DNA of 64,000 nt from an uncultured delta proteobacterium (GTDB lineage Bacteria > Desulfobacterota > Desulfomonilia > UBA1062): contig CAWAUM010000007.1 in the NCBI GenBank assembly GCA_963785235.1, positions 96,001 to 160,000 on the forward strand. The letters run 5' to 3'. A program made the position numbers and the translations under genes. The notes under the pieces are model-generated. The model worked only from the letters and a program-made list of their open reading frames with translations. It made no database searches and was not told where the DNA came from. Shown here piece by piece: positions 7,922 through 23,757 of this stretch; within the stretch, counting starts at the first letter, position 1, and each line of letters opens with the position of its first letter.

Positions 7922-8176
7922 ATGAAACGTACATGGCAGATACAAGAAGCGAAGAATAAACTGAGCGAGGTAGTTGATGAAGCAGTCCATCATGGACCAC
8001 AGGTTATTACCAAGCGGGGTGTTGAAGTTGCTGTTATGCTATCCTATTGTGAATATCGTAAAATGATCTCCTTGCAGAAGAAGCTCTCCACTTTCTTTCG
8101 CGAATCTCCTCTTGTGGGGGTCGACCTCGATCTCAGTCGAGATAGGACCGGAATGCGTGAGGATGTCTCGCTATGA
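7922..8176 (+). CDS. Phd/YefM-family antitoxin
   Basis: WQIQEAKNKLSEVVDEA...PQVITKRG signature; overlaps the toxin start (ATGA). Confidence 0.9.
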   Translation: MKRTWQIQEAKNKLSEVVDEAVHHGPQVITKRGVEVAVMLSYCEYRKMISLQKKLSTFFRESPLVGVDLDLSRDRTGMREDVSL

Positions 8177-8592
8177 AGTATCTTCTCGATACGTGTGTAA
8201 TCTCAGAACTGGTCGCTAAAAAACCCAATCCCCTAGTACTCAACTGGATAGACAGCATAGACCCGGACAGCGCTTATCTGAGTGTGATCACCATAGGAGA
8301 AATAAGAAAGGGGATAGAGAAACTACCTGACTCGAGGCGTAAAACCACTCTCAATTCATGGCTGATCGAGGAGCTGATGGCTCGATTTAGTGGCAAGATC
8401 CTCCCAATTGATGCTGAAGTTGTGCTCATGTGGGGTCAGCTGATAGGTTCTCTGGAATCAGATGGGAAGAAAATGGCAGCAATAGATTCTCTTATAGCGG
8501 CCACAGCACTTTATAACCACTGCAGCTTAGTAACAAGGAATGAAGCTGACTTCAAACATACCGGCATAGCGATTATTAATCCTTGGGAGTAA
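8173..8592 (+). CDS. vapC: VapC-family PIN-domain toxin
   Basis: YLLDTCVISE, ITIGEI, DSLIAATA, LVTRNEADF, INPW PIN motifs. Confidence 0.9.
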   Translation: MKYLLDTCVISELVAKKPNPLVLNWIDSIDPDSAYLSVITIGEIRKGIEKLPDSRRKTTLNSWLIEELMARFSGKILPIDAEVVLMWGQLIGSLESDGKKMAAIDSLIAATALYNHCSLVTRNEADFKHTGIAIINPWE

Positions 8593-10752: not shown

Positions 10753-13185
10753 ATGGAAAAGGCAAAGGATGCAAAGAAGATTTCCACAGGCCGCGTCAAG
10801 GCCGACAAAGACCGGATCGACCGGCTGAAAGAACAACTCAGGAGCACCCCTGCCGAGGTTGATTTTGAGCGGATCAGGATCATGGAGGAGGTTTACGCGG
10901 CCACTCAGGGCGACCAGAATATCATGCGTCGAGCCAAGTTCTATGCCACCCTGCTGGAGCGGAAGAAGATCTACATCGACGACAACTGCTTTGTGGGCAG
11001 CATGGCCGGCACCGTCAACGGCATCTACACGTATCCGGAATGGAACATCGATTGGATGAAGGACGATAATACCGTCGAGAAGTGCAAGGATCCGGTGGAC
11101 AAGAAGGCGAACCAGTGGGCACTCGACTACTGGGACAAGCGCGCCCTGAAACCCCGCACCCTGGAGATCTTCGAGAAGAAGTATGGTTTCGATCCGAAAC
11201 CCTGCTATGAGTCCGGCTTTGTCGTCAGTTTCTTTGACTGGCCGGGTGGTGGCGGCAATCTGAACTACCCCCGGATTTACAACCATGGGCTGGCCGCCAT
11301 GATCAAGGAGGTCGAGGAGCGGCAGGCGGCCCTCGACATGCGGCTGCCCAATGCCAGCAAGCTCTACTTCTATGAAGCCAGCCTCATCGTCATGAGGGCC
11401 ATTGTGCGCCTGGCTCATCGCTATGCCGAGCTGGCCCGGGAAATGGCGAAAAAGGAAAAGAATGAAACCCGCAAGGCAGAGCTGATTGCCATCGCCGAAA
11501 CCATGGAACGAGTTCCCGAGCATCCGGCCCGGAACCTGAGAGAGGCCATCCAATGCCACTTCTTCTGTCACATTTGTGCGGAGCTCGAGCAGGTTGGCTG
11601 CGGTTACTCCGAGGCCTATCTGGGCCAGAACCTTGAGCCCTACTATCAACGCGACAAAGCGGCGGGTCTGGTCGATTACGAACAAGCGACGTTCATGTTC
11701 CAGAATCTCGTGATCAAGCTGAACGAGATCGGCTATTACTTTGGAGAGAAGGTCGCCCTGCAGAACTCGGCCGACCTCGGGCAGAGCGTCTCCCTGGGAG
11801 GCTTTACCGAGGATGGGGAGGATGCCACCGCGGAAATGGACTATGTGGTTCTGGATGCATGCAACTATCTCCACCTGCCGCAGCCTCCGCTGACTTGCGT
11901 CTACACGGAGAGGATGAGCGGCAAATTCCTCGAGAAGGTCCTGGATGTCATCGGCACCGGTATCGGCATGCCTCAGTTGGTAAACGGCAATGTGATGATC
12001 AAACGGGCACTCAATCTATTCGGTGACTCCAAAAAGGGCATCACCCTCGAAAAAGCCAGGCGCACCTGCATCGGCGCATGTGTGGGTTCTTACCCCCCCT
12101 ACGAGACCGGTCACCCGGTGGAAGGCCAGCCCAACCTGGGCAAGGTCATCGAGCTGGTGATGAACAATGGCTTCGATCCTCGCACCAAGAAGCAGGTCGG
12201 ACCCAAGACCGGTGATCCCGAGACCTTCAAAACCTTCGAAGAACTCTACGCGGCATTCCAAAAGCAGATCGATTTCAATGAAGAGGTCCTCCGCCGGGGT
12301 GCCTGGATCGCCAGCATGTTGTGCGCCGACTTCCTCCCGGTTCCTTGGCGCTCGCTCCTGACCGGGGGCTGCATTGAAACGGGCACCGAGGTGTGGAACG
12401 GCGGGGCCAATTACTACACCGTTGCCCAGATTGTGGTGGGGGGCATCGACGCGGCCAACTGTCTCATGGCGGTGAAGAAACTGGTCTACGACGACAAGAA
12501 GATCACCATGGCCGAACTCAAGAAAGCCCTGGCCGCCAACTGGGAGGGGGAATACGAGAAGATTCGGAAGCTGTGTTACGAAGCTCCCAAGCACGGCAAC
12601 GACATCCCTGAAATGAACAGGATGGCGTACAGGGTGTACGAAAGCATCTTCAAGGCTTTCAACAATGTTGACGGCGGCGGCAACTACCTCAGCAAAGACA
12701 TCAAATCAGCGCCGGATGCCTATACCAAGAGCATCCACAACCTGATGGGTATGGTGACCGGGGCTCTGCCCAACGGCAAGAGAGCCGGAGTGGCACTCAC
12801 CGATGGAAGTCTGTCGGCCATGCCGGGAACCGATGTCAGCGGTCCTACCGCGTTGGTGATGTCTGCGGCGAAGGCTCAGGATGCCATCAAGTACACCGCA
12901 ACCCACATGAACATGAAACTCCCGCCTGATCAGCTGAAGACACGCAAGGGCCGGGATAATGTGCTGCGTCTGGTCAAAACCCTGTTTGATAACGATGGCT
13001 ATCACATCCAGTTCAACGTCCTGGATACCAACATCCTCAGGGATGCGCAGAAGCACCCGGAAAACTACCGTGACCTCGTGGTCCGGGTAGCCGGTTTCAG
13101 TGCCTTCTTCACCGCACTGGCTAAGGGCGTACAGGACGAGGTCATTGAGCGCACTTTGCAGTCGTTTGACGGTCAGATGTGCTGA
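10753..13185 (+). CDS. Glycyl radical enzyme of unknown function (PFL2/GRE superfamily)
   Basis: C-terminal HPENYRDLVVRVAGFSAFF glycyl-radical loop (G781), HIQFNV, GALPNGKRAG, and Cys loop CIGACVGS (C443). A cognate activase lies downstream. Confidence 0.93.
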   Translation: MEKAKDAKKISTGRVKADKDRIDRLKEQLRSTPAEVDFERIRIMEEVYAATQGDQNIMRRAKFYATLLERKKIYIDDNCFVGSMAGTVNGIYTYPEWNIDWMKDDNTVEKCKDPVDKKANQWALDYWDKRALKPRTLEIFEKKYGFDPKPCYESGFVVSFFDWPGGGGNLNYPRIYNHGLAAMIKEVEERQAALDMRLPNASKLYFYEASLIVMRAIVRLAHRYAELAREMAKKEKNETRKAELIAIAETMERVPEHPARNLREAIQCHFFCHICAELEQVGCGYSEAYLGQNLEPYYQRDKAAGLVDYEQATFMFQNLVIKLNEIGYYFGEKVALQNSADLGQSVSLGGFTEDGEDATAEMDYVVLDACNYLHLPQPPLTCVYTERMSGKFLEKVLDVIGTGIGMPQLVNGNVMIKRALNLFGDSKKGITLEKARRTCIGACVGSYPPYETGHPVEGQPNLGKVIELVMNNGFDPRTKKQVGPKTGDPETFKTFEELYAAFQKQIDFNEEVLRRGAWIASMLCADFLPVPWRSLLTGGCIETGTEVWNGGANYYTVAQIVVGGIDAANCLMAVKKLVYDDKKITMAELKKALAANWEGEYEKIRKLCYEAPKHGNDIPEMNRMAYRVYESIFKAFNNVDGGGNYLSKDIKSAPDAYTKSIHNLMGMVTGALPNGKRAGVALTDGSLSAMPGTDVSGPTALVMSAAKAQDAIKYTATHMNMKLPPDQLKTRKGRDNVLRLVKTLFDNDGYHIQFNVLDTNILRDAQKHPENYRDLVVRVAGFSAFFTALAKGVQDEVIERTLQSFDGQMC

Positions 13186-13197
13186 GATTCAAGTCAA

Positions 13198-13232
13198 CCG
13201 GCACGACGTGGCATAGCGCCACGCCGTGCCGG
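13198..13232. terminator. GC-rich intergenic hairpin after the GRE gene
   Basis: ccggcacgacgtggc-atagc-gccacgccgtgccgg forms a 15-bp stem with 1 mismatch. There is no U-tract, so it may be a stabiliser or processing site. Confidence 0.45.
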
Positions 13233-13314
13233 AAGTTCCAAGATGAGTACCAAGGCTCTGCAGGGCGCGAGGCTATTGATGCCTATACAGGAAAATTCAC
13301 ACAGGAGGATTATT

Positions 13315-14490
13315 ATGAGTAAAGAAATAGGTCATGCCAGTTTTCAACGACGCATTGCCATCAATGTGGGTGCCGGCTACGTGCCCGGTATAAATGCTGT
13401 GATAATGGGCGCAAGCCTTGCTGCGAACAAACTGGGATGGGAGATAGTCGGCATCATGGACGGGTTTGAGGGGCTGTTGCACCGGCCTAGCTACCCCAAC
13501 GGCGGGCTGGTGTCACTCAGCCCGCAAATGATTGAGAACCTGGATCCGTCTGCCGGGGGAATCCTGGGCCAAGCGTTGCGGATCGATCCGTTTCATGTCC
13601 GTCGCGTAAATGAAGACGACATGGTAGAAGAAGTCGACGTATCCGATGAACTGATTAGAATACTTCAGGACGAGCAGATCGACGCATTGATTTCAGTTGT
13701 TGGGGGTCAAGGATTAAGTATTCTTTATAAGCTCCATCGTAAAGGGCTCAATACGGTTTGCATCCCCAGATCGATTGAGAACGACATCGCTGCCACAGCG
13801 GTCTCCTTCGGGTTCAACAGCGCCCTGAGTTTTACTATCGAAATGCTGGATCGGGCTCTTCAGGCGGCCCGGGCAGCCCGCAAAATCGCGGTAGTGGAGG
13901 TCTTGGGAGAACAGGCCGGTTGGATTGCATTACAGGCCGGCATTGCAGTTTGTGCCGATGTAGTGCTGATTCCCGAAGTTCCCTGCGATCTGAATGCGGT
14001 TGCATCCAGATTGAAAGAAAAGATGCGATTCAGAAATCATTACGGACTTGTGGTGGTGGCCGAAGGGGCGAAGTTTGTCGATAATACGCAAAGCCAGGCG
14101 GATCCCTCCTCCCTGAAAGCTACTCTCTCGCCGCTGGCAACGGGTGAGGCAAGTGAACATGTCATTTCGCAATCAGGCCAGGCCGCCGCGACAGTGGCAA
14201 CCAGGTTGCAGTTACTGATCGCCGAGGAAATCTATCCGCTGGTAATTGGTCCCTGGGTCAGGGGTGGTACCCCCACTGCTGTCGACCGGCAACTGGGGAT
14301 GGCCTACGGCGCCGGAGCCATTCAGGCGCTGAAAGCCGGGAAAAACGGCGCAATGGTTGCTTTTAATCCACCAGCCATCGAATTTCTGCCTTTGGCAGAA
14401 GCGATCAATAAAGTCAGAACGGTGCCCACAGACAGCCTGTTCGTGAAAATCGCCCAATCGCTCGGCATCTTTCTAGGGAGGGAATTATGA
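13315..14490 (+). CDS. 6-phosphofructokinase (PfkA)-fold protein with degenerate catalytic motifs
   Basis: PfkA architecture throughout ([46 protein letters not shown]), but GAGYV, PRSIEND and LGE replace GGD, PKTIDND and MGR. RBS aggagga before ATG 13315. Confidence 0.8.
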
Positions 14491-15450
14491 AAAAACAAAA
14501 CATCAACCCCTCCGATATAACAGGCACAGTGCTGAATATCCAACGATATTGCAGCCACGACGGTCCGGGCATCCGGACAACGGTTTTTCTCAAGGGCTGC
14601 TCTTTGCGCTGCAAATGGTGCGGCAATCCCGAAAGCATTAGCCTGAAGCCGGAAATGTCCTACGACTCCAGGAAGTGCACCGGCAAGAAGTGCGGCCTCT
14701 GCCTGAAGCCGCCGTTTCCTGAAGGCGCCTTCTATTTTGTGGAGGGGGATGATGACCAAAGTAAAAGTCAACTGGCACCTGGCCATGGACATAAATAACG
14801 AACTGGTTTCGCTCTGCCCGACCGGTGCGCTCGAAATGTTCGGCAAACGGATGACCGTCAACGAGGTGCTCGACGAGGTGGAGAAGGATGCCTCCATCTA
14901 CCGCAGTACCGGTGGCGGCATGACGATAAGCGGCGGTGAAGTCATGCTGCAACCCGACTTTGCGGCAGCTTTGCTGCAGGAAGCACACAATCGCGGCCTC
15001 AATACGGCTATAGAAACAGCCTGCAATGCGCCATGGTCCTTCCTTGAAAAAGTACTTCCCCACGTGGATACGATGCTTCACGACAACAAACTGATGAATT
15101 CGGAACGGCACAAAAAGTGGACCGGCGTAGGCAATGAAAGAATTCTGGCGAACTTCAAAAAAGCCTACGAAACGTTCCCCCATGTGGAGTTTATTACCCG
15201 CACACCGCTGATTCCCGGCGTAAACGCCGATGAAGAGCACGTCCGGGCCGTGCTGGCATTCATCAAGCCATATAAAAACGTGATCGACTATGAGCTCTTG
15301 CCCTATCACCGCTTTGGTCTGGGCAAGTATGAACTGTTGGGAGAGGTGTATGAACTGGATGATTACAAAACGCCGTCTGCCGACCTGGTCGCGCACCTGC
15401 AGGCCATCATCGACGAAGCCTTTGGCCGCAGCGGGCCGCAAACAAAATAG
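14487..15450 (+). CDS. Glycyl-radical enzyme activating enzyme (radical SAM), frameshift near 14750
   Basis: [26 protein letters not shown] (CxxxCxxC), a ferredoxin-like insert, [15 protein letters not shown] and LLPYH. Pieces at 14487..14798 and 14737..15450. Confidence 0.92.
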
Positions 15451-15463
15451 AAAGGAAACAATC

Positions 15464-16720
15464 ATGGCCAGACAGAAAGAGAAAAAAAGCATGAAAACTG
15501 AAGGCCGCCAAACACCTCCGAAGAAGCCGGGAGCCGGGAACGGTTCGGGCCGGACAGATGACATTTACGAGCGCCTGGCGGACGCGCTGGACGCGCTTCC
15601 GAGTGGCTTTCCCAGGACGAAATCCGGGGTGGAAATGAAACTGATCAAGATGGCGTTTACGCCCGAGGAGGTAGCCCTTGCCGGTCAGTTGACCCGCTTT
15701 CCCGAGACCGCTGCCGAGATCGCCAAACGGGTCGGCATGGATGAGGCTGACGTAACCGTGTTGTGCGAGAGCTTGATCCCCAGGCGCCTGGTACGTCTCG
15801 ACTCGCCCGGGTATGACATGGCCGGTCAAGATCAGGGTGATGGGGCGAAGAAGTACCGGCTGGGCATGTTCCTGGTTGGCTGGTATGAAGCCAATATGCG
15901 GCTGCTGGGTAAGGAATTTGCCGAGCTCTTCGAGCAATATGTTATTGAAGGCGGCGGTGAAAGAATACTTGCTCCTCGGCCTGGGGTTCTTGGTGTTGTT
16001 CCCGTTCGGGGGTCACTATCGCCAGAACAGATCAAAGTGATGGAACCCCATCTTGATATCGACGCGCATTTCAAACGGCACGAACGATTTGTTGTGTTTG
16101 GCTGCGTATGTAAAAGGGAGCAGGAATTATTGCATGGCCACAGCTGCGATATGCCGATGAAACGCTGCGGTTTTGTAGGCGTCCCACCCCAGACGCCACT
16201 TTCGGAAAACGTGCTTGACCGGGAAGAGGCGGACAAGCTTCTTCGTGAACTGGAGGACATGGGACACGTTCACCTCGCGGCCTATGGATACGTCATGGGC
16301 GCGGAGACTCCTCAGTTTGTCGGAGGGTGTAACTGCTGCGGCTGTTGTTGCGGGGTCCTTCACAGCCAGAAACTCTCCGGCATTTCGGAAGCGGCACAGC
16401 GTTCGAACTACCGCGCCGTCATTGATTCGGAAAAATGCATTTCCTGCGGTCTGTGCATCAAGCGTTGCCCGGTGGACGCCATCTTCGAGGGCCCGAAGCG
16501 CTTGCCCACAGGGCCTCTCTGTGCGGCCGTGGAATTGGAGCCCGGCAAGTCCGAGGTGGACCGGGCCAAGTGCATCGGCTGCGGCGTGTGCGTGATCAAA
16601 TGCCCGACGAATGCGATCGAACTTGTGCCGGTATCGAAAGAAGAATGGTTCCATACTCCTGCCAGCATGGCGGAATGGGAAGAGATGCGCCTTGCGTTTC
16701 TGGCAGCGGAAAAGAAGTAA
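15464..16720 (+). CDS. Multi-Cys 4Fe-4S binding protein with N-terminal HTH-like region
   Basis: GCVCK, GCNCCGCCC, CISCGLCIKRCP and CIGCGVCVIKCP motifs; RBS aaagga. Confidence 0.85.
   Translation: MARQKEKKSMKTEGRQTPPKKPGAGNGSGRTDDIYERLADALDALPSGFPRTKSGVEMKLIKMAFTPEEVALAGQLTRFPETAAEIAKRVGMDEADVTVLCESLIPRRLVRLDSPGYDMAGQDQGDGAKKYRLGMFLVGWYEANMRLLGKEFAELFEQYVIEGGGERILAPRPGVLGVVPVRGSLSPEQIKVMEPHLDIDAHFKRHERFVVFGCVCKREQELLHGHSCDMPMKRCGFVGVPPQTPLSENVLDREEADKLLRELEDMGHVHLAAYGYVMGAETPQFVGGCNCCGCCCGVLHSQKLSGISEAAQRSNYRAVIDSEKCISCGLCIKRCPVDAIFEGPKRLPTGPLCAAVELEPGKSEVDRAKCIGCGVCVIKCPTNAIELVPVSKEEWFHTPASMAEWEEMRLAFLAAEKK
16613..16689 (+). repeat. 77-bp direct repeat copy 1 (FeS protein 3' region)
   Basis: Matches 19408..19484 with 3 mismatches; weaker similarity extends upstream to about 16541/19336. 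Confidence 0.85.
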
Positions 16721-16787
16721 AGCCTGGGCAAACAGGCGGGATGGAAGAACGGCTTCGTTTCGCGAAGGGAATAGGAGGAGAAGCAAG

Positions 16788-18089
16788 ATGAACACAACCG
16801 ACTTGATTACGGCGGAAGTACTGGCCGGGCGGCTCAAGATGGCCGCCGAAGGCATCAAGCAGAAGCCCGGCTTAATGAAGTCCGCCATAGGCTATATGGA
16901 ACTGGTTTATAAGTACGTGGAGCGGATCGTGACGGCCAAAGAAAAGGGCAAATATGTGGTTACCCATGGCACCCAGCAGCCCCTCGAAATTTACGAAGCT
17001 ATGGACATCGTGTGCCTCTTCAACGAGTTCTGGGGTGTCATCTCGGATGTCGTGAACACGGATTCCGTCCCCGCGGCCATGAATATTTCGGCTTCGACCG
17101 GCACACCGCAGGAGGTCTGCTCCTTCTTCCGGAACATGGACGGCCTGCTGCATGCCGGGAAGTGGCCGCATACGGACATGTTTGTCTACGCCACCTCCTC
17201 GTGCGATAACGTTAAGGCGTTCCACACGCTGGGCCGGCGATACGGCATCCCCAGTTTCGGCATGGAGCGGCCCTATTACCCGTTCACACCCCATGCGATG
17301 GAACACTGGAAGAACGAGCACAAGCGTTTGATCGCCTTCCTGGAAGAGCAGACGGGGAAGAGGATGGACTATGACCGTCTCAATGAGACGTTACGCCTCT
17401 CTTACCGTCTTACCGAGATCGCCTGCGAGATCGACAAGCTGGTAGCCCATGTCCCAACTCCCATGTCCCCCGAATGCTTTGGGGGAGTACTGCTGGCGAT
17501 CCGCCTGATGTGCGGGACCCAGGAGGCTGTGGACTACCTGGAATCGCTGAAGGCGGAACTCGAGGAACGGGTGTCCAAGGGCATCGCCGCCGTCGAGCCG
17601 GAACGCTTCCGGGTGATGTGGAGCAGTTTCACCCCGTTCTGGGACCCGGGAATCATGGCCTTCATGCAGGAGAAGTACGGAGCGGTCTCGGTGTGCGAGG
17701 TGCTGCAGCGCTGGCGCGGGGAGGCGAACTGGATGCTGGATCCGGATGATCCGTTGGGCAACCTCGCTTACAAAACTCAGGTCGCACCCGGAAACTGTCA
17801 ATACTCGCCCTCCTTAGATTGGGCCGGGGAAGTCGTCGCGCAGGCCCGCAAATACAAGCCGGACGTGGCGATCTTCAACAACAACCGGGGCTGCAAGCAG
17901 GCTGCGGGCTTGGAACCAATCATCAGGGACGAGCTGCTGCGTCAATGCGGCGTGCCGACCCTCACGCTTGCCGTGGATGTGATTGATGCAACTTTTACCA
18001 GCCGGGCAGAGGTCGAAAGGCAGTTGGACGGCTTTTTTGAAATGATCGAGGGAAGCGAAGCTTACCAGGAAAGGAGGGCAAACGCATGA
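16788..18089 (+). CDS. 2-hydroxyacyl-CoA dehydratase / class I benzoyl-CoA reductase family subunit (alpha-type)
   Basis: EVCSFFR, SSCDNVK and RGCKQ cluster cysteines; LIAFLEEQTGKRMDYDRL; GVPTLTL..D. Confidence 0.85.
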   Translation: MNTTDLITAEVLAGRLKMAAEGIKQKPGLMKSAIGYMELVYKYVERIVTAKEKGKYVVTHGTQQPLEIYEAMDIVCLFNEFWGVISDVVNTDSVPAAMNISASTGTPQEVCSFFRNMDGLLHAGKWPHTDMFVYATSSCDNVKAFHTLGRRYGIPSFGMERPYYPFTPHAMEHWKNEHKRLIAFLEEQTGKRMDYDRLNETLRLSYRLTEIACEIDKLVAHVPTPMSPECFGGVLLAIRLMCGTQEAVDYLESLKAELEERVSKGIAAVEPERFRVMWSSFTPFWDPGIMAFMQEKYGAVSVCEVLQRWRGEANWMLDPDDPLGNLAYKTQVAPGNCQYSPSLDWAGEVVAQARKYKPDVAIFNNNRGCKQAAGLEPIIRDELLRQCGVPTLTLAVDVIDATFTSRAEVERQLDGFFEMIEGSEAYQERRANA

Positions 18090-19231
18090 ACCCCCAACTG
18101 CAAGTTCTGAACGAAATGCGGAAAGCGACCTCTCCATTCCCGGAGAGCGTAACCGTCAAGGACTGGAAAGCCTCTGGCCGAAAGGTGATCGGCTGTGTCA
18201 ACCCCTACGTCCCGGAGGAGATCATCCACGCGGCCGGGATGCTTCCATTCAAGATCACCGGTGACAACGAGCCGGTCGAGATGCAGGGGGCCGAGGCCTA
18301 CATCCTCTCCAATACCTGCTCCTACATTCGCACCTGCTGGCAGCTGCAGCTCGACGGCAAGTACGGTTTCCTGGACGGCCTGGTCTTCTCCAACATGTGC
18401 GACCAGGATAAGCGGCTGTACAGCGTGTGGGAGTACTATAAGAAGCTTCCCTACATGGACATCCTCTACGCGCCGCGCAAGCGCGACGAGGAGGCTGTCA
18501 AGCTGTACCTGGCCGATCTCGAGGACTTCAGGGACAGGTTCTCGCTGTACCGGCTGAGCAGGATCACCGACCGGGACGTCGCGGACGCCATCCGCGTCTA
18601 CAACCGGGGACGTGAGCTCATGCATCGTCTCTACGAACTGCGCAAGCGTGATCGCCCACCTGTGACAGGTGCCGAGGCCCTGGAAGTAAGCAAGGCTGCC
18701 GCACGCCTGCCGCGTGAGCGTTTCAACGAGCTGATGGAGCAACTGCTTGACGAGATCCAGCGCACCGGGCGCGAGATCAAGAAGGCCAGGCGCCTGATGG
18801 TCATCGGCAACGATATTCACAACACCAACCAGGTCGCCGCGTTCGAGGAAATGGACGCGCTGGTCGTCGTGGACGAGATGAATTGCGGCATCCGGCAAGC
18901 CCTGGGCCAGGTGGACACCAAGATGCCGCCGATGGAGGCTCTGGCCCGCTACTACGTGATGGGCCGTCCGGTCGACATGCACAACTGGAATTCCGACGGG
19001 CGACTCGCGTTCATTGGCCAGATGGTTGAACAATACAGGGTTGACGGGATTGTGTCCGAGATCGTTCGCTTCTGCACCTACAACGGCTGGGACAAGTTCG
19101 ATCTCAAGAAGCAGATGGAACAGCGCGGCATTCCCATCCTGGATATCGACCTCGAGTACGGCCATCCGGCTGGAGCGCAGGTGAAGACCCGCGCCGAGGC
19201 GTTCATGGAGATGCTGGAAAGCCGAGCCTGA
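18086..19231 (+). CDS. 2-hydroxyacyl-CoA dehydratase / benzoyl-CoA reductase family subunit (beta-type)
   Basis: PYVPEEIIHAAG, NTCSYIR, NMCDQ, RFCT and QVKTRAEAFMEML; ATGA overlap with the preceding gene. Confidence 0.88.
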   Translation: MNPQLQVLNEMRKATSPFPESVTVKDWKASGRKVIGCVNPYVPEEIIHAAGMLPFKITGDNEPVEMQGAEAYILSNTCSYIRTCWQLQLDGKYGFLDGLVFSNMCDQDKRLYSVWEYYKKLPYMDILYAPRKRDEEAVKLYLADLEDFRDRFSLYRLSRITDRDVADAIRVYNRGRELMHRLYELRKRDRPPVTGAEALEVSKAAARLPRERFNELMEQLLDEIQRTGREIKKARRLMVIGNDIHNTNQVAAFEEMDALVVVDEMNCGIRQALGQVDTKMPPMEALARYYVMGRPVDMHNWNSDGRLAFIGQMVEQYRVDGIVSEIVRFCTYNGWDKFDLKKQMEQRGIPILDIDLEYGHPAGAQVKTRAEAFMEMLESRA

Positions 19232-21941: not shown

Positions 21942-22816
21942 ATGGACATTATGACTTGGTTCAACATCACAGTGGTCGTGTTTACCGTGGCTAATCTGAT
22001 GGCCGGGGGCCTTGAGTGCGATCTGAAAGAAGCGGTCAAGTTGTTGAAAAGCCCCACGCTCTTCGTGCCGACCCTTTTTTGGGGCTGGGTGGCCGGGCCG
22101 GCCCTTGCCTGGCTGATCATCCAAGTGCTTCCGCTGTCGGCGGGACATGCCGCCGGGCTGATGTTGTGCAGCTTGGCGCCCATTGCGCCGTTCCTGCCGC
22201 TGGCGGCGATGAAGGCCCGTGGCGACATGACCTTCACCGGAGCCTACATCCTGCTGGGGACGGTCGTTACCGTCTTGTTGATGCCGCTGATGGCACCTCT
22301 GCTGATCAAGGGGCTGACCTTGAGCACCTGGCCGCTCGCGAAGCCGCTCATCATATTGGTGCTGATTCCTTTGCTGCTTGGCATTGTCATCCGGTTTTAC
22401 AAGCCGGCAGTGGCCGCCAAGATATTTAAACCGGTCAAGAAAACCGGCGGCATCTTCCTGCTGCTCTGCCTGGGGACGTGCCTGTGGATCTACGGCATGC
22501 AAATGCTCGGCACGGTGGGCAGCTTTGCCACGGCCGCTTGGGTCATCTTCATGGTCGTGATGGCCGTGCTGCCGTATCTGATTGGCTTCGGCATGAAACA
22601 GAATCAGCGCAGCGTCATGGCAATCGGCCAGAGCTCGCGGAATATTTCGGCCGGGTTCGTGGCGTTCTTTGGTATTACCAACCCGCCCGAGGGGATGTTC
22701 CTGATGGTTGTGCTGGTGGTTCCGCTGCACGTCATCATCGGGCTCTTATCGGTGCCGCCCATATTCGCCAGGCTGGCCGGCAAGACCGTGAAACCGCTGA
22801 GGAAGTTGCGGCATGA
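21942..22816 (+). CDS. Bile acid:sodium symporter (BASS/SBF)-family transporter; frameshift near 22790
   Basis: About 9 hydrophobic helices; LAPIAPFLP..AMKARGD and SSRNISA motifs. The probable true end is ...ETAEEVAA* at 22816. Confidence 0.75.
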
Positions 22817-22929
22817 ACATCATCCGGAAGATCTCCAGCCTGCTGCAGCGCGATTTTCCTGGAGTGAGGCACACAAGCATTACGATGAATCTCGAAAAGC
22901 ACAGAAGCTCAGAAATATGGAGGTATGCA

Positions 22930-23757
22930 ATGAGTACGTTCAAATCGACAATGGTCCTGATGGTGTTCCTGGCAACGGCTCTGGCGGCATGGGCGCAGGA
23001 GCCTGCCACGGAAGGGGCAAGCGCGCAGCAGGATCAGGCGGCGGAACTGGCGAAAAAGGCGCAGAATCCGGTAGCGGACCTGATGATCATGCCGCTGCAG
23101 TACAACATCGATTTCGGCATCGGCCCTGCGGACGCGTCCCAGCAGACGCTGAAATTCATGCCGGTCATTCCGTTTTCGCTGGGCACGGAGTGGAACCTGA
23201 TCACCCGCACCATCATACCATGGATCGATGCGGAGTCGCCGGTGGAAGGCGGCGAGGACTATTCCGGTCTGGGCGACATCCAGCAGAGCTTCTTCTTCAC
23301 GCCCAAAGAGCCGGTGGGTGGATGGATCATGGGAGCGGGACCGATCATCCAGTACCCGTCGGCCACCGAAGATGCGCTCGGCAGCGAGAAGTGGGGCGCA
23401 GGGCCCTCGTTCATTGTGCTGAAGCAGAAGAACGGATGGACCATTGGCATGCTCGCGAACCACGTCTGGTCGTTCGCCGGGAATGACGACCGGGAAAATG
23501 TCAACGTGACGTTCCTGCAGCCGTTCCTCGCCAAGACAACGAAGACCTATACGACGTTGTCCGTGAACACGGAGTCGATCTATGACTGGAAAAACAGCCA
23601 GTGGACGGTCCCCATCAACGTCTCCCTCGGACAGATGATCAAGGTCGGGAAGCTACCCATCAGTCTGGAGCTCGGCTACCGCTATTACGCGGAAAAGCCC
23701 GACGGCGGCCCGGATTGGGGGCTGCGCGCCTTCGTCAAGTTCCTGTTCCCGAAATAG
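22930..23757 (+). CDS. Outer-membrane beta-barrel/transporter (ELAKKAQNPVADL family)
   Basis: Signal peptide, NPVADL, GLGDIQQSFF, LGSEKWGAGP, FLQPF, terminal FLFPK. This family is commonly found beside sulfatases. Confidence 0.7.
   Translation: MSTFKSTMVLMVFLATALAAWAQEPATEGASAQQDQAAELAKKAQNPVADLMIMPLQYNIDFGIGPADASQQTLKFMPVIPFSLGTEWNLITRTIIPWIDAESPVEGGEDYSGLGDIQQSFFFTPKEPVGGWIMGAGPIIQYPSATEDALGSEKWGAGPSFIVLKQKNGWTIGMLANHVWSFAGNDDRENVNVTFLQPFLAKTTKTYTTLSVNTESIYDWKNSQWTVPINVSLGQMIKVGKLPISLELGYRYYAEKPDGGPDWGLRAFVKFLFPK

Follow-up and report, generated by a model that had tools for sequence, protein, structure and literature searches.

Glycyl radical enzymes (GREs) catalyse key anaerobic reactions, and getting their activating enzymes (AEs, or activases) to work is the main obstacle for orphan GREs. 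Here we describe a gene for a protein with the fold of a phosphofructokinase (PFK) that lies between a GRE gene and the gene for its activase, a radical S-adenosylmethionine (SAM) enzyme. It is found in a stretch of 64,000 nucleotides from an uncultured delta proteobacterium (assembly GCA_963785235.1, contig CAWAUM010000007.1, positions 96,001 to 160,000; hereafter the window), where it occupies positions 13315-14490 of the forward strand. We refer to it as the PFK-like gene. A preliminary description, made from the letters of the window alone, had drawn attention to the replacement of its catalytic motifs.

Several described systems bear a likeness to this protein. The 'mixed-substrate' ATP/pyrophosphate (PPi) PFKs (PfkA, PF00365, the TIGR02483 group) share its fold and length class, and it nests among them. 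It differs from them in lacking the Asp of GGDG, the Arg of MGR, Arg243 and His249, in having Ser for Thr125 and Glu for Asp127, in carrying an extra conserved loop and in scoring below the NCBIfam cut-offs; it is also never found in a glycolytic context and always precedes a GRE activase. Dead PFK modules that serve as regulators are known as well, namely the alpha subunit of the plant PPi-dependent PFK (PFP) and the C-terminal half of eukaryotic PFK. Like these, the PFK-like protein appears to have lost catalysis but retained its fold and some of the ligand site. Those modules regulate a catalytic PFK, however; the PFK-like protein has no PFK linked to it, and its partner would be a radical SAM enzyme. 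SqiK is an active kinase of the PfkA family that acts on sulfofructose in the sulfo-EMP2 pathway; in Firmicutes its gene is accompanied by those of an aldolase and an isomerase (PMC9594981). It too is a member of PF00365, and its setting is organosulfur metabolism; compared by description, the PFK-like protein differs from it in lacking the Mg-ATP residues and in adjoining a GRE activase. Finally, GRE operons can encode small subunits, which a June 2026 GRE review describes only for HPAD, BSS and MASS, all of them HiPIP- or rubredoxin-like iron proteins that bind the GRE (PMC13450708). The PFK-like protein resembles these as an additional product of a GRE operon with a presumed effect on the installation or stability of the radical; it differs in being a PFK fold of 391 residues, without a Cys cluster motif, that tracks the activase. 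The review never mentions phosphofructokinase or PFK (PMC13450708), and our literature search turned up no account of a PFK-like protein as partner of a GRE or of an activase.

A phosphofructokinase fold with replaced kinase residues

The PFK-like gene has an intact frame for 391 amino acids, from an ATG at 13315 to a TGA stop at 14488-14490, and belongs to an activase-linked clade of PFK-like sequences. As read from the sequence, a strong ribosome-binding site, AGGAGGA (13303-13309, forward strand), lies 5 nt before the ATG, and the ATG of the activase gene at 14487 overlaps the stop codon as ATGA. These features had been pointed out in the preliminary description and are borne out. The product matches Pfam PF00365 over the whole profile (positions 1-277 of 277, E 2.3e-60) and reaches the cut-off of none of the 11 NCBIfam PFK models, the best being TIGR02483 with 239.6 bits against the 430.55 demanded. 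An AlphaFold2 model from an alignment of 109 rows has a predicted local distance difference test score (pLDDT) of 88 and a predicted template modelling (TM) score, pTM, of 0.86; it supersedes an earlier model from a 14-row alignment that gave a pLDDT of 45. The best Foldseek matches are the PPi-PFK 9cis/9cir and the ATP-PFKs 1zxx, 3u39 and 1pfk, with TM scores of 0.72-0.79.

The motifs were compared with those of the genome's own two canonical PFKs and of 60 canonical representatives. Positional conservation was counted among 199 family members and clade signatures among 15 clade representatives; residue roles (Mg-ATP ligand, catalytic base, 6-phosphate ligands) and E. coli numbering follow the E. 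coli and Bacillus PFK literature. The substitutions listed in the preliminary description are real: GGGD is replaced by GAGY, GGDG by GGQG, PKTIDND by PRSIEND, MGR by LGE and LGHxQRGG by IGPWVRGG. It was mistaken on one point, the loss of the GTILG.SR motif to GGILGQAL, in that the Arg of this motif is retained one residue on as R89, a position that is Arg in 181 of the 199 members. The register of GGDG is also ambiguous by one, HMMER pairing Q132 with the Asp and MAFFT pairing G131. No member has an acidic residue at either position: 131 is Gly in 192 of them, and 132 is Arg in 100, Gln in 82 and Lys in 10. Canonical representatives show GGDG, GGED or GGDD at this Mg-ATP site.

At the position of the catalytic Asp127 (residue 155), which lies in the loop S-I-E-N-D, Glu is found in 167 members, Asp in 31 and Asn in one. 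The Thr of TIDND is Ser in all 15 clade representatives. The position of Arg171, in MGR, is never Arg; Glu, Ala, Gly, Ser, Gln or Asp stands there instead. Among the 6-phosphate ligands, Arg162 is replaced by Lys (195/199), Arg243 by Tyr, Phe or Ile, and His249 by Pro (180/199), which leaves Arg252 as the sole ligand kept, in 199/199. Taking all residues conserved in at least 85% of canonical PFKs, eight are kept by at most two of the 15 clade members: D22, T153 (Ser), D155 (Glu), H188, M197, R199, R307 and H313. The clade also has signatures of its own, at Ser153, Glu155, Val129, Cys149 and Ala184. The window protein shows the S-[IV]-E-N-[DE] loop, an inserted L-x-A-S-L-S-P loop, Val129 and Cys149, each of which occurs in 13-15 of the 15 clade representatives and in fewer than 15% of the 60 canonical PFKs. 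The protein is a PFK fold in which the Mg-ATP residues, the residues that bind the phosphate of fructose-6-phosphate and the Arg beside the transferred phosphate are replaced, in a clade under purifying selection. This clade-wide loss of kinase residues supports the pseudokinase reading that the preliminary description had proposed.

A word-indexed search gave 120 clusters among the matches listed, at 75-82% identity and all of 383-407 amino acids. In an exhaustive representative library, sister subfamilies at 41-50% identity share the same kind of changes and canonical PFKs appear from 39% down. The closest homologues, in which canonical motifs would, by the preliminary description, have pointed to recent decay of one copy, thus have the altered ones down to about 41% identity. 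In a quick maximum likelihood tree of 81 rows, from which six truncated or aberrant rows had been dropped, all 14 PFK-like rows form one clade (support of 100 in the Shimodaira-Hasegawa-like approximate likelihood ratio test, SH-aLRT; stem 0.86) nested within canonical 'mixed' PFKs. Elsewhere in this tree a further six PFKs whose motifs are degenerate in part (P0205, P0293, P0268, P0217, P0286 and P0177) are scattered among the canonical ones and, by that scatter, look like independent losses. Purifying selection was another feature to be checked, and the median pairwise ratio of nonsynonymous to synonymous substitution rates (dN/dS) over 834 usable pairs is 0.17 for the PFK-like gene, 0.13 for the activase and 0.16 for the GRE. 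The notion of a decaying kinase copy without function, for which the loss of kinase motifs alone speaks, is refuted by these values, by the conservation of 124 of the 391 positions in at least 98% of the 199 members, and by open reading frames (ORFs) of 380-396 amino acids that are intact in all 55 genome loci kept under that length filter.

The activase as constant neighbour

Genome loci were taken as the best 78 of 233 stretches encoding a relative. In all 78 of these main-family loci a GRE homologue lies upstream on the same strand and directly precedes the PFK-like gene. The activase starts within 120 nt downstream in 77 of them, and the 78th locus ends at the PFK-like gene. Among the 55 pairs in which both ORFs are intact, the genes overlap by 4 nt in 26 cases and by 1 nt in 10, and all spacings fall between -14 and +42 nt. 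The preliminary description is supported in that the PFK fold is non-canonical, of long standing, under selection and linked to a GRE system; the conserved partner within that system is the activase rather than the GRE. The position directly behind the GRE does allow the PFK-like protein to be seen as a stoichiometric accessory subunit of the GRE that controls access to the glycyl radical domain or to the active site, as the small beta/gamma subunits would in benzylsuccinate synthase or HPAD, its linkage to the activase being incidental. Known accessory subunits regulate radical installation, according to the review (PMC13450708). Comparison across loci bears on this alternative in several ways.

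A sample of 401 genomes from the phylum of the window gave strong PFK-like matches in five, with 12 weaker matches (E 1e-91 to 1e-99) left aside, and four of the loci were inspected. The activase gene is directly downstream of the PFK-like gene in all four. Three represent a sister operon with the order GRE2-SDR-PFK-like-AE-CMD-transporter, in one of which genes for DUF3300 and DUF2950 proteins are added between the SDR and PFK-like genes. Relative to the window, identity in the sister operon is 28-32% for GRE2, 53-63% for the PFK-like protein and 62-68% for the activase; the Cys loop of GRE2 is canonical (GCVE, GCCE or GCSE). The fourth locus belongs to the main family and has the order GRE-FeS-PFK-like-AE. 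Thus, where the GRE is a very different one or the gene order is another, the activase is still adjacent, and it is this adjacency that is invariant. That one clade serves such different GREs, with other genes intervening, argues against a GRE subunit.

When metagenomes were scanned with the sister subfamilies as seeds, 77 loci came up. Degenerate motifs are present in 13 of these, and the activase gene comes next in 11 of the 13, the other two running off the contig DNA. The remaining 64 loci have no AE or GRE match nearby; 63 have canonical motifs and one is unreadable. A short metagenome contig (L124:1-1925) has the C-terminal end of an activase upstream of a PFK-like gene, an arrangement that may reflect two cassettes in tandem. 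A candidate fusion protein of 712 amino acids with PFK and radical SAM domains (P0122), the sole such case among 22 longer proteins, was rejected as a frameshift artefact because the PFK-like C-terminus is out of frame.

Divergence was also compared among the three genes. The Spearman correlation of pairwise dN is 0.75 between PFK-like gene and activase, 0.12 between PFK-like gene and GRE and 0.22 between activase and GRE, values that are descriptive and carry no valid p-value because locus pairs are not independent. One locus, L044, is an island near-identical to the window. DNA identity between the two is 97-100% in the 3' part of the GRE gene (from 12301), drops to 57-83% between about 13200, where the GRE stop and the hairpin lie, and the activase stop at about 15600, is 88-95% in the gene for an Fe-S protein that follows, and returns to 97-100% in the HGD-D genes beyond it. 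Relative to L044, the PFK-like and activase genes have thus been exchanged as a unit, the breakpoints falling at the stop codons of the GRE and of the activase. Neither result favours a GRE subunit: the divergence of the PFK-like protein does not track that of the GRE, and a 97%-identical GRE is paired in these two loci with a PFK-like protein that is only 73% identical.

The GRE and PFK-like genes are further parted by a GC-rich RNA hairpin without a U-run just after the GRE stop codon (13198-13231, forward strand; the intergenic fold has -45.5 kcal/mol, z -3.2). Folding covered the 41 loci among the 55 pairs in which the end of the GRE is complete and the spacer measures 40-260 nt; by eye the hairpin is at the same place in all 41, with z below -2 in 36. 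RNAalifold, run on the window and 40 loci (L017, in which the hairpin is further in, was left out), gave 13 pairs for the 41 sequences, 11 of them with compensatory changes, and the sequence is partly conserved (CCGGTACGGCGTGGC...GCCACGCCGTACCGG). No Rfam family matches the intergenic hairpin, and a terminator scan found nothing there. We think that it is probably a partial terminator or a 3' stabiliser that separates GRE expression from that of the downstream genes. Since the PFK-like gene lies behind the hairpin and is translationally coupled to the activase gene, its product is likely made in activase-like rather than GRE-like amounts. In the sister operon no hairpin follows GRE2 directly, and a structured spacer is seen only ahead of the PFK-like gene, so that this argument is confined to the main family. 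With the coupling directed to the activase, the GRE cistron set apart in this way and the comparisons given above, an accessory subunit of the GRE seems to us quite unlikely.

It should be noted that the PFK-like gene was absent, at E 1e-100 or better, from all 40 relatives of the organism searched (14 of the genus, 10 of the family and 16 of the class). The record titles of the 78 loci, with labels as deposited, name Acidobacteriota, delta proteobacteria, Bacteroidales, Nitrospiraceae, Verrucomicrobiota, Planctomycetota, Chloroflexia and others, and the cassette is horizontally mobile. This distribution bears on another suggestion of the preliminary description, that the protein is a non-catalytic partner of another PFK, for instance a regulatory subunit of the cell's own enzyme that couples glycolysis to GRE metabolism in the manner of the alpha subunit of plant PPi-PFK. 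The genome does have two canonical PFKs and the regulatory use of dead PFK modules provides a precedent, but the canonical genes lie on other contigs. Moreover, a cassette that is missing from the 40 relatives searched and present in records labelled as many phyla must bring its partner along, and what it moves with is the activase; we regard a role as PFK regulator as very improbable and have set that suggestion aside. In sequencing runs, no run held more than 38% of the sampled words. An RNA run contained short contigs at least 90% alike on the PFK-like gene, for example over 14239-14407 with 2 differences, a hint of expression by relatives.

Structural predictions and a proposed role

The clade-specific inserted loop comprises residues 265-276 (14107-14142, forward strand) and is near-invariant in sequence while being modelled as disordered. 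Among the 199 members L271 and S272 are conserved in 100% and K268, P273 and L274 in 99%, and canonical PFKs are gapped at L271 and P273 in 97-100% of cases. The only internal stretch of low confidence in the AlphaFold2 model, residues 258-282 (pLDDT below 50 at 258-274 and 278-282), holds the near-invariant SSLKA(S/T)LSPLAT. Because its sequence hardly varies although the loop is modelled as flexible, this stretch is a candidate for docking or for a lid.

The activase (322 amino acids) and PFK-like protein (385 amino acids) of locus L004 were co-folded with a 57-row alignment each, taking the median of three runs and comparing with three controls. The pair scored 0.58 against 0.00 for the best control, with at least 38% of contacts shared between runs and a partner pLDDT of 83 or more. 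In calibration 116 of 157 solved complexes and 2 of 215 mismatches attained the mark, and scores of 0.60 or less took in 18 of the 157 solved complexes and both passing mismatches. The prediction thus lends weak support to a complex of the two proteins and makes a small addition to a prior raised by the genetics.

We propose that the PFK-like protein is a non-kinase partner or regulator of the activase, to which we assign a probability of about 0.55. By this proposal the PFK-fold protein would no longer phosphorylate a sugar and would work with the radical SAM activase encoded next downstream. The two proteins may bind each other, and the PFK-like protein could stabilise the activase or gate the timing of glycyl radical installation, acting through a small anionic or adenosyl ligand in the remodelled cleft or through the flexible loop LKASLSPLAT. 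The hairpin would keep the GRE abundant while the PFK-like protein and the activase are made together in smaller amounts. A more specific version is offered tentatively and is, taken as a whole, doubtful: the protein might regulate a radical SAM activase as its subunit, the first such subunit to be known, its cleft sensing an anionic or adenosyl metabolite and its invariant loop licensing or blocking radical installation. An oxygen-sensitive GRE would then be armed only when substrate or reducing power is present, and co-expression with the PFK-like protein could render intractable activases soluble and active in vitro. If the proposal holds, an obligatory partner of one activase clade, found in records labelled as many phyla, would add a new part to this machinery and offer a practical handle for reconstitution. 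Metabolic reconstructions from soil and sediment genomes may also credit a glycolytic step that the PFK-like protein almost certainly does not perform, because '6-phosphofructokinase' is what such proteins are called wherever a source names them.

Several observations weigh against a partnership with the activase. Co-inheritance of overlapping genes can be explained by physical linkage alone, and the correlations of divergence are no more than descriptive. A co-fold graded as weak support is expected to be wrong in most cases if the prior is not high, and no interface is reported. The activase is also frameshifted in this assembly, where a single extra base near 14754-14757 breaks it into two frames, 14487-14798 and 14737-15450, so that the system in this organism might be broken. 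Contigs of three DNA runs from three studies, which represent related populations, have one base fewer at 14754-14756, and a second activase of the same genome, outside the window (C7:251497-252389), is split likewise. An assembly indel is therefore likelier than a real activase pseudogene.

The former sugar-phosphate site, finally, is partly conserved: among the 199 members Ser153 is kept in 194, Asn156 in 198, Lys190 in 195 and Arg316 in all, Asp157 in 185 and Glu250 in 175, and the 31 members with Asp at the catalytic position have been mentioned. This conservation is also compatible with a real enzyme or ligand binder that never touches the activase. The PFK-like protein might, for instance, be a working enzyme of altered chemistry, in line with the enzyme for a different substrate that the preliminary description had also entertained: a phosphotransferase or other transferase acting on an anionic (sulfonated or phosphorylated) substrate or product of the pathway through Glu155, Asp157, Lys190 and Arg316, with a metal-independent donor site formed by Arg152 and Arg, Gln or Lys132. 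Such an enzyme would fit the conservation of the remodelled cleft, to which R152 (198/199) can be added. It would also fit the frequency of sulfur-handling neighbours across the 78 loci, where proteins like CoA-disulfide reductase (CoADR) occur in 33, SsuA-like proteins in 29 and rhodaneses in 19, and SqiK provides a PfkA-family sulfosugar kinase as precedent (PMC9594981). On the other hand, the would-be catalytic positions vary freely (132 among R, Q and K; 199 among E, A, G, S, Q and D; 155 between E and D), and R152 and W314 are not conserved in the sister subfamilies. In addition, the clade is found with two very different GRE classes and with differing neighbour enzymes while the adjacency to the activase is constant, and service to GREs as distant as 28-32% identity argues against a substrate-specific pathway enzyme. 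We consider an altered enzyme rather unlikely.

Surrounding genes

The GRE gene of the window (10753-13185, forward strand) encodes 810 amino acids and matches the Pfam PFL-like and Gly_radical families. Its class is uncharacterised: the protein falls below every NCBIfam equivalog cut-off, the best being HypD with 487.9 bits against 1100, and its closest PDB match is likewise HypD (6vxc). The Gly motif is RVAGFS, and the Cys loop, GACVGS, is without the usual Glu of eliminase-type GREs.

The activase gene (14487-15450, forward strand) encodes a GRE-activating radical SAM enzyme, both pieces of which match NCBIfam TIGR02494. Main-family activases have four invariant Cys in the ferredoxin-like insert (C64, C69, C72 and C110 in the numbering of L004), which by count should be enough for one auxiliary cluster; activases of the sister operon have the full eight in this insert. 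The same genome has about nine GRE matches and at least seven activases. Five of its other activases are intact, 29-41% identical to the PFK-like-linked activases and without a PFK-like neighbour, and they carry the usual eight-Cys double-ferredoxin insert.

Downstream of the activase is the gene for an Fe-S protein (15464-16720, forward strand; the start was chosen as the first Met past the activase stop), with the Cys run CNCCGCCCG and two ferredoxin-type motifs that match Pfam Fer4 families. Homologues occur in 42 of the 78 loci, which makes it a common but not a constant neighbour; it is a possible electron donor. Beyond it lie genes for two HGD-D family proteins, a CoA-disulfide-reductase-like flavoprotein, a rhodanese and an SBF transporter. 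The HGD-D pair (16611-19231), which resembles 2-hydroxyacyl-CoA dehydratases and double-cubane reductases, is rare, with homologues in two of the 78 loci (L044 and L056). The SBF transporter match is confined to the first 180 residues of a 514-aa ORF (21942-23486), the remainder of which may be out-of-frame read-through, possibly from another indel. A sigma-54 activator and an SsuA-like protein are encoded upstream of the GRE gene. Also on that side of the cassette, two small ORFs that overlap (7922-8592) look by eye like a toxin-antitoxin pair, the second member being PIN-like.

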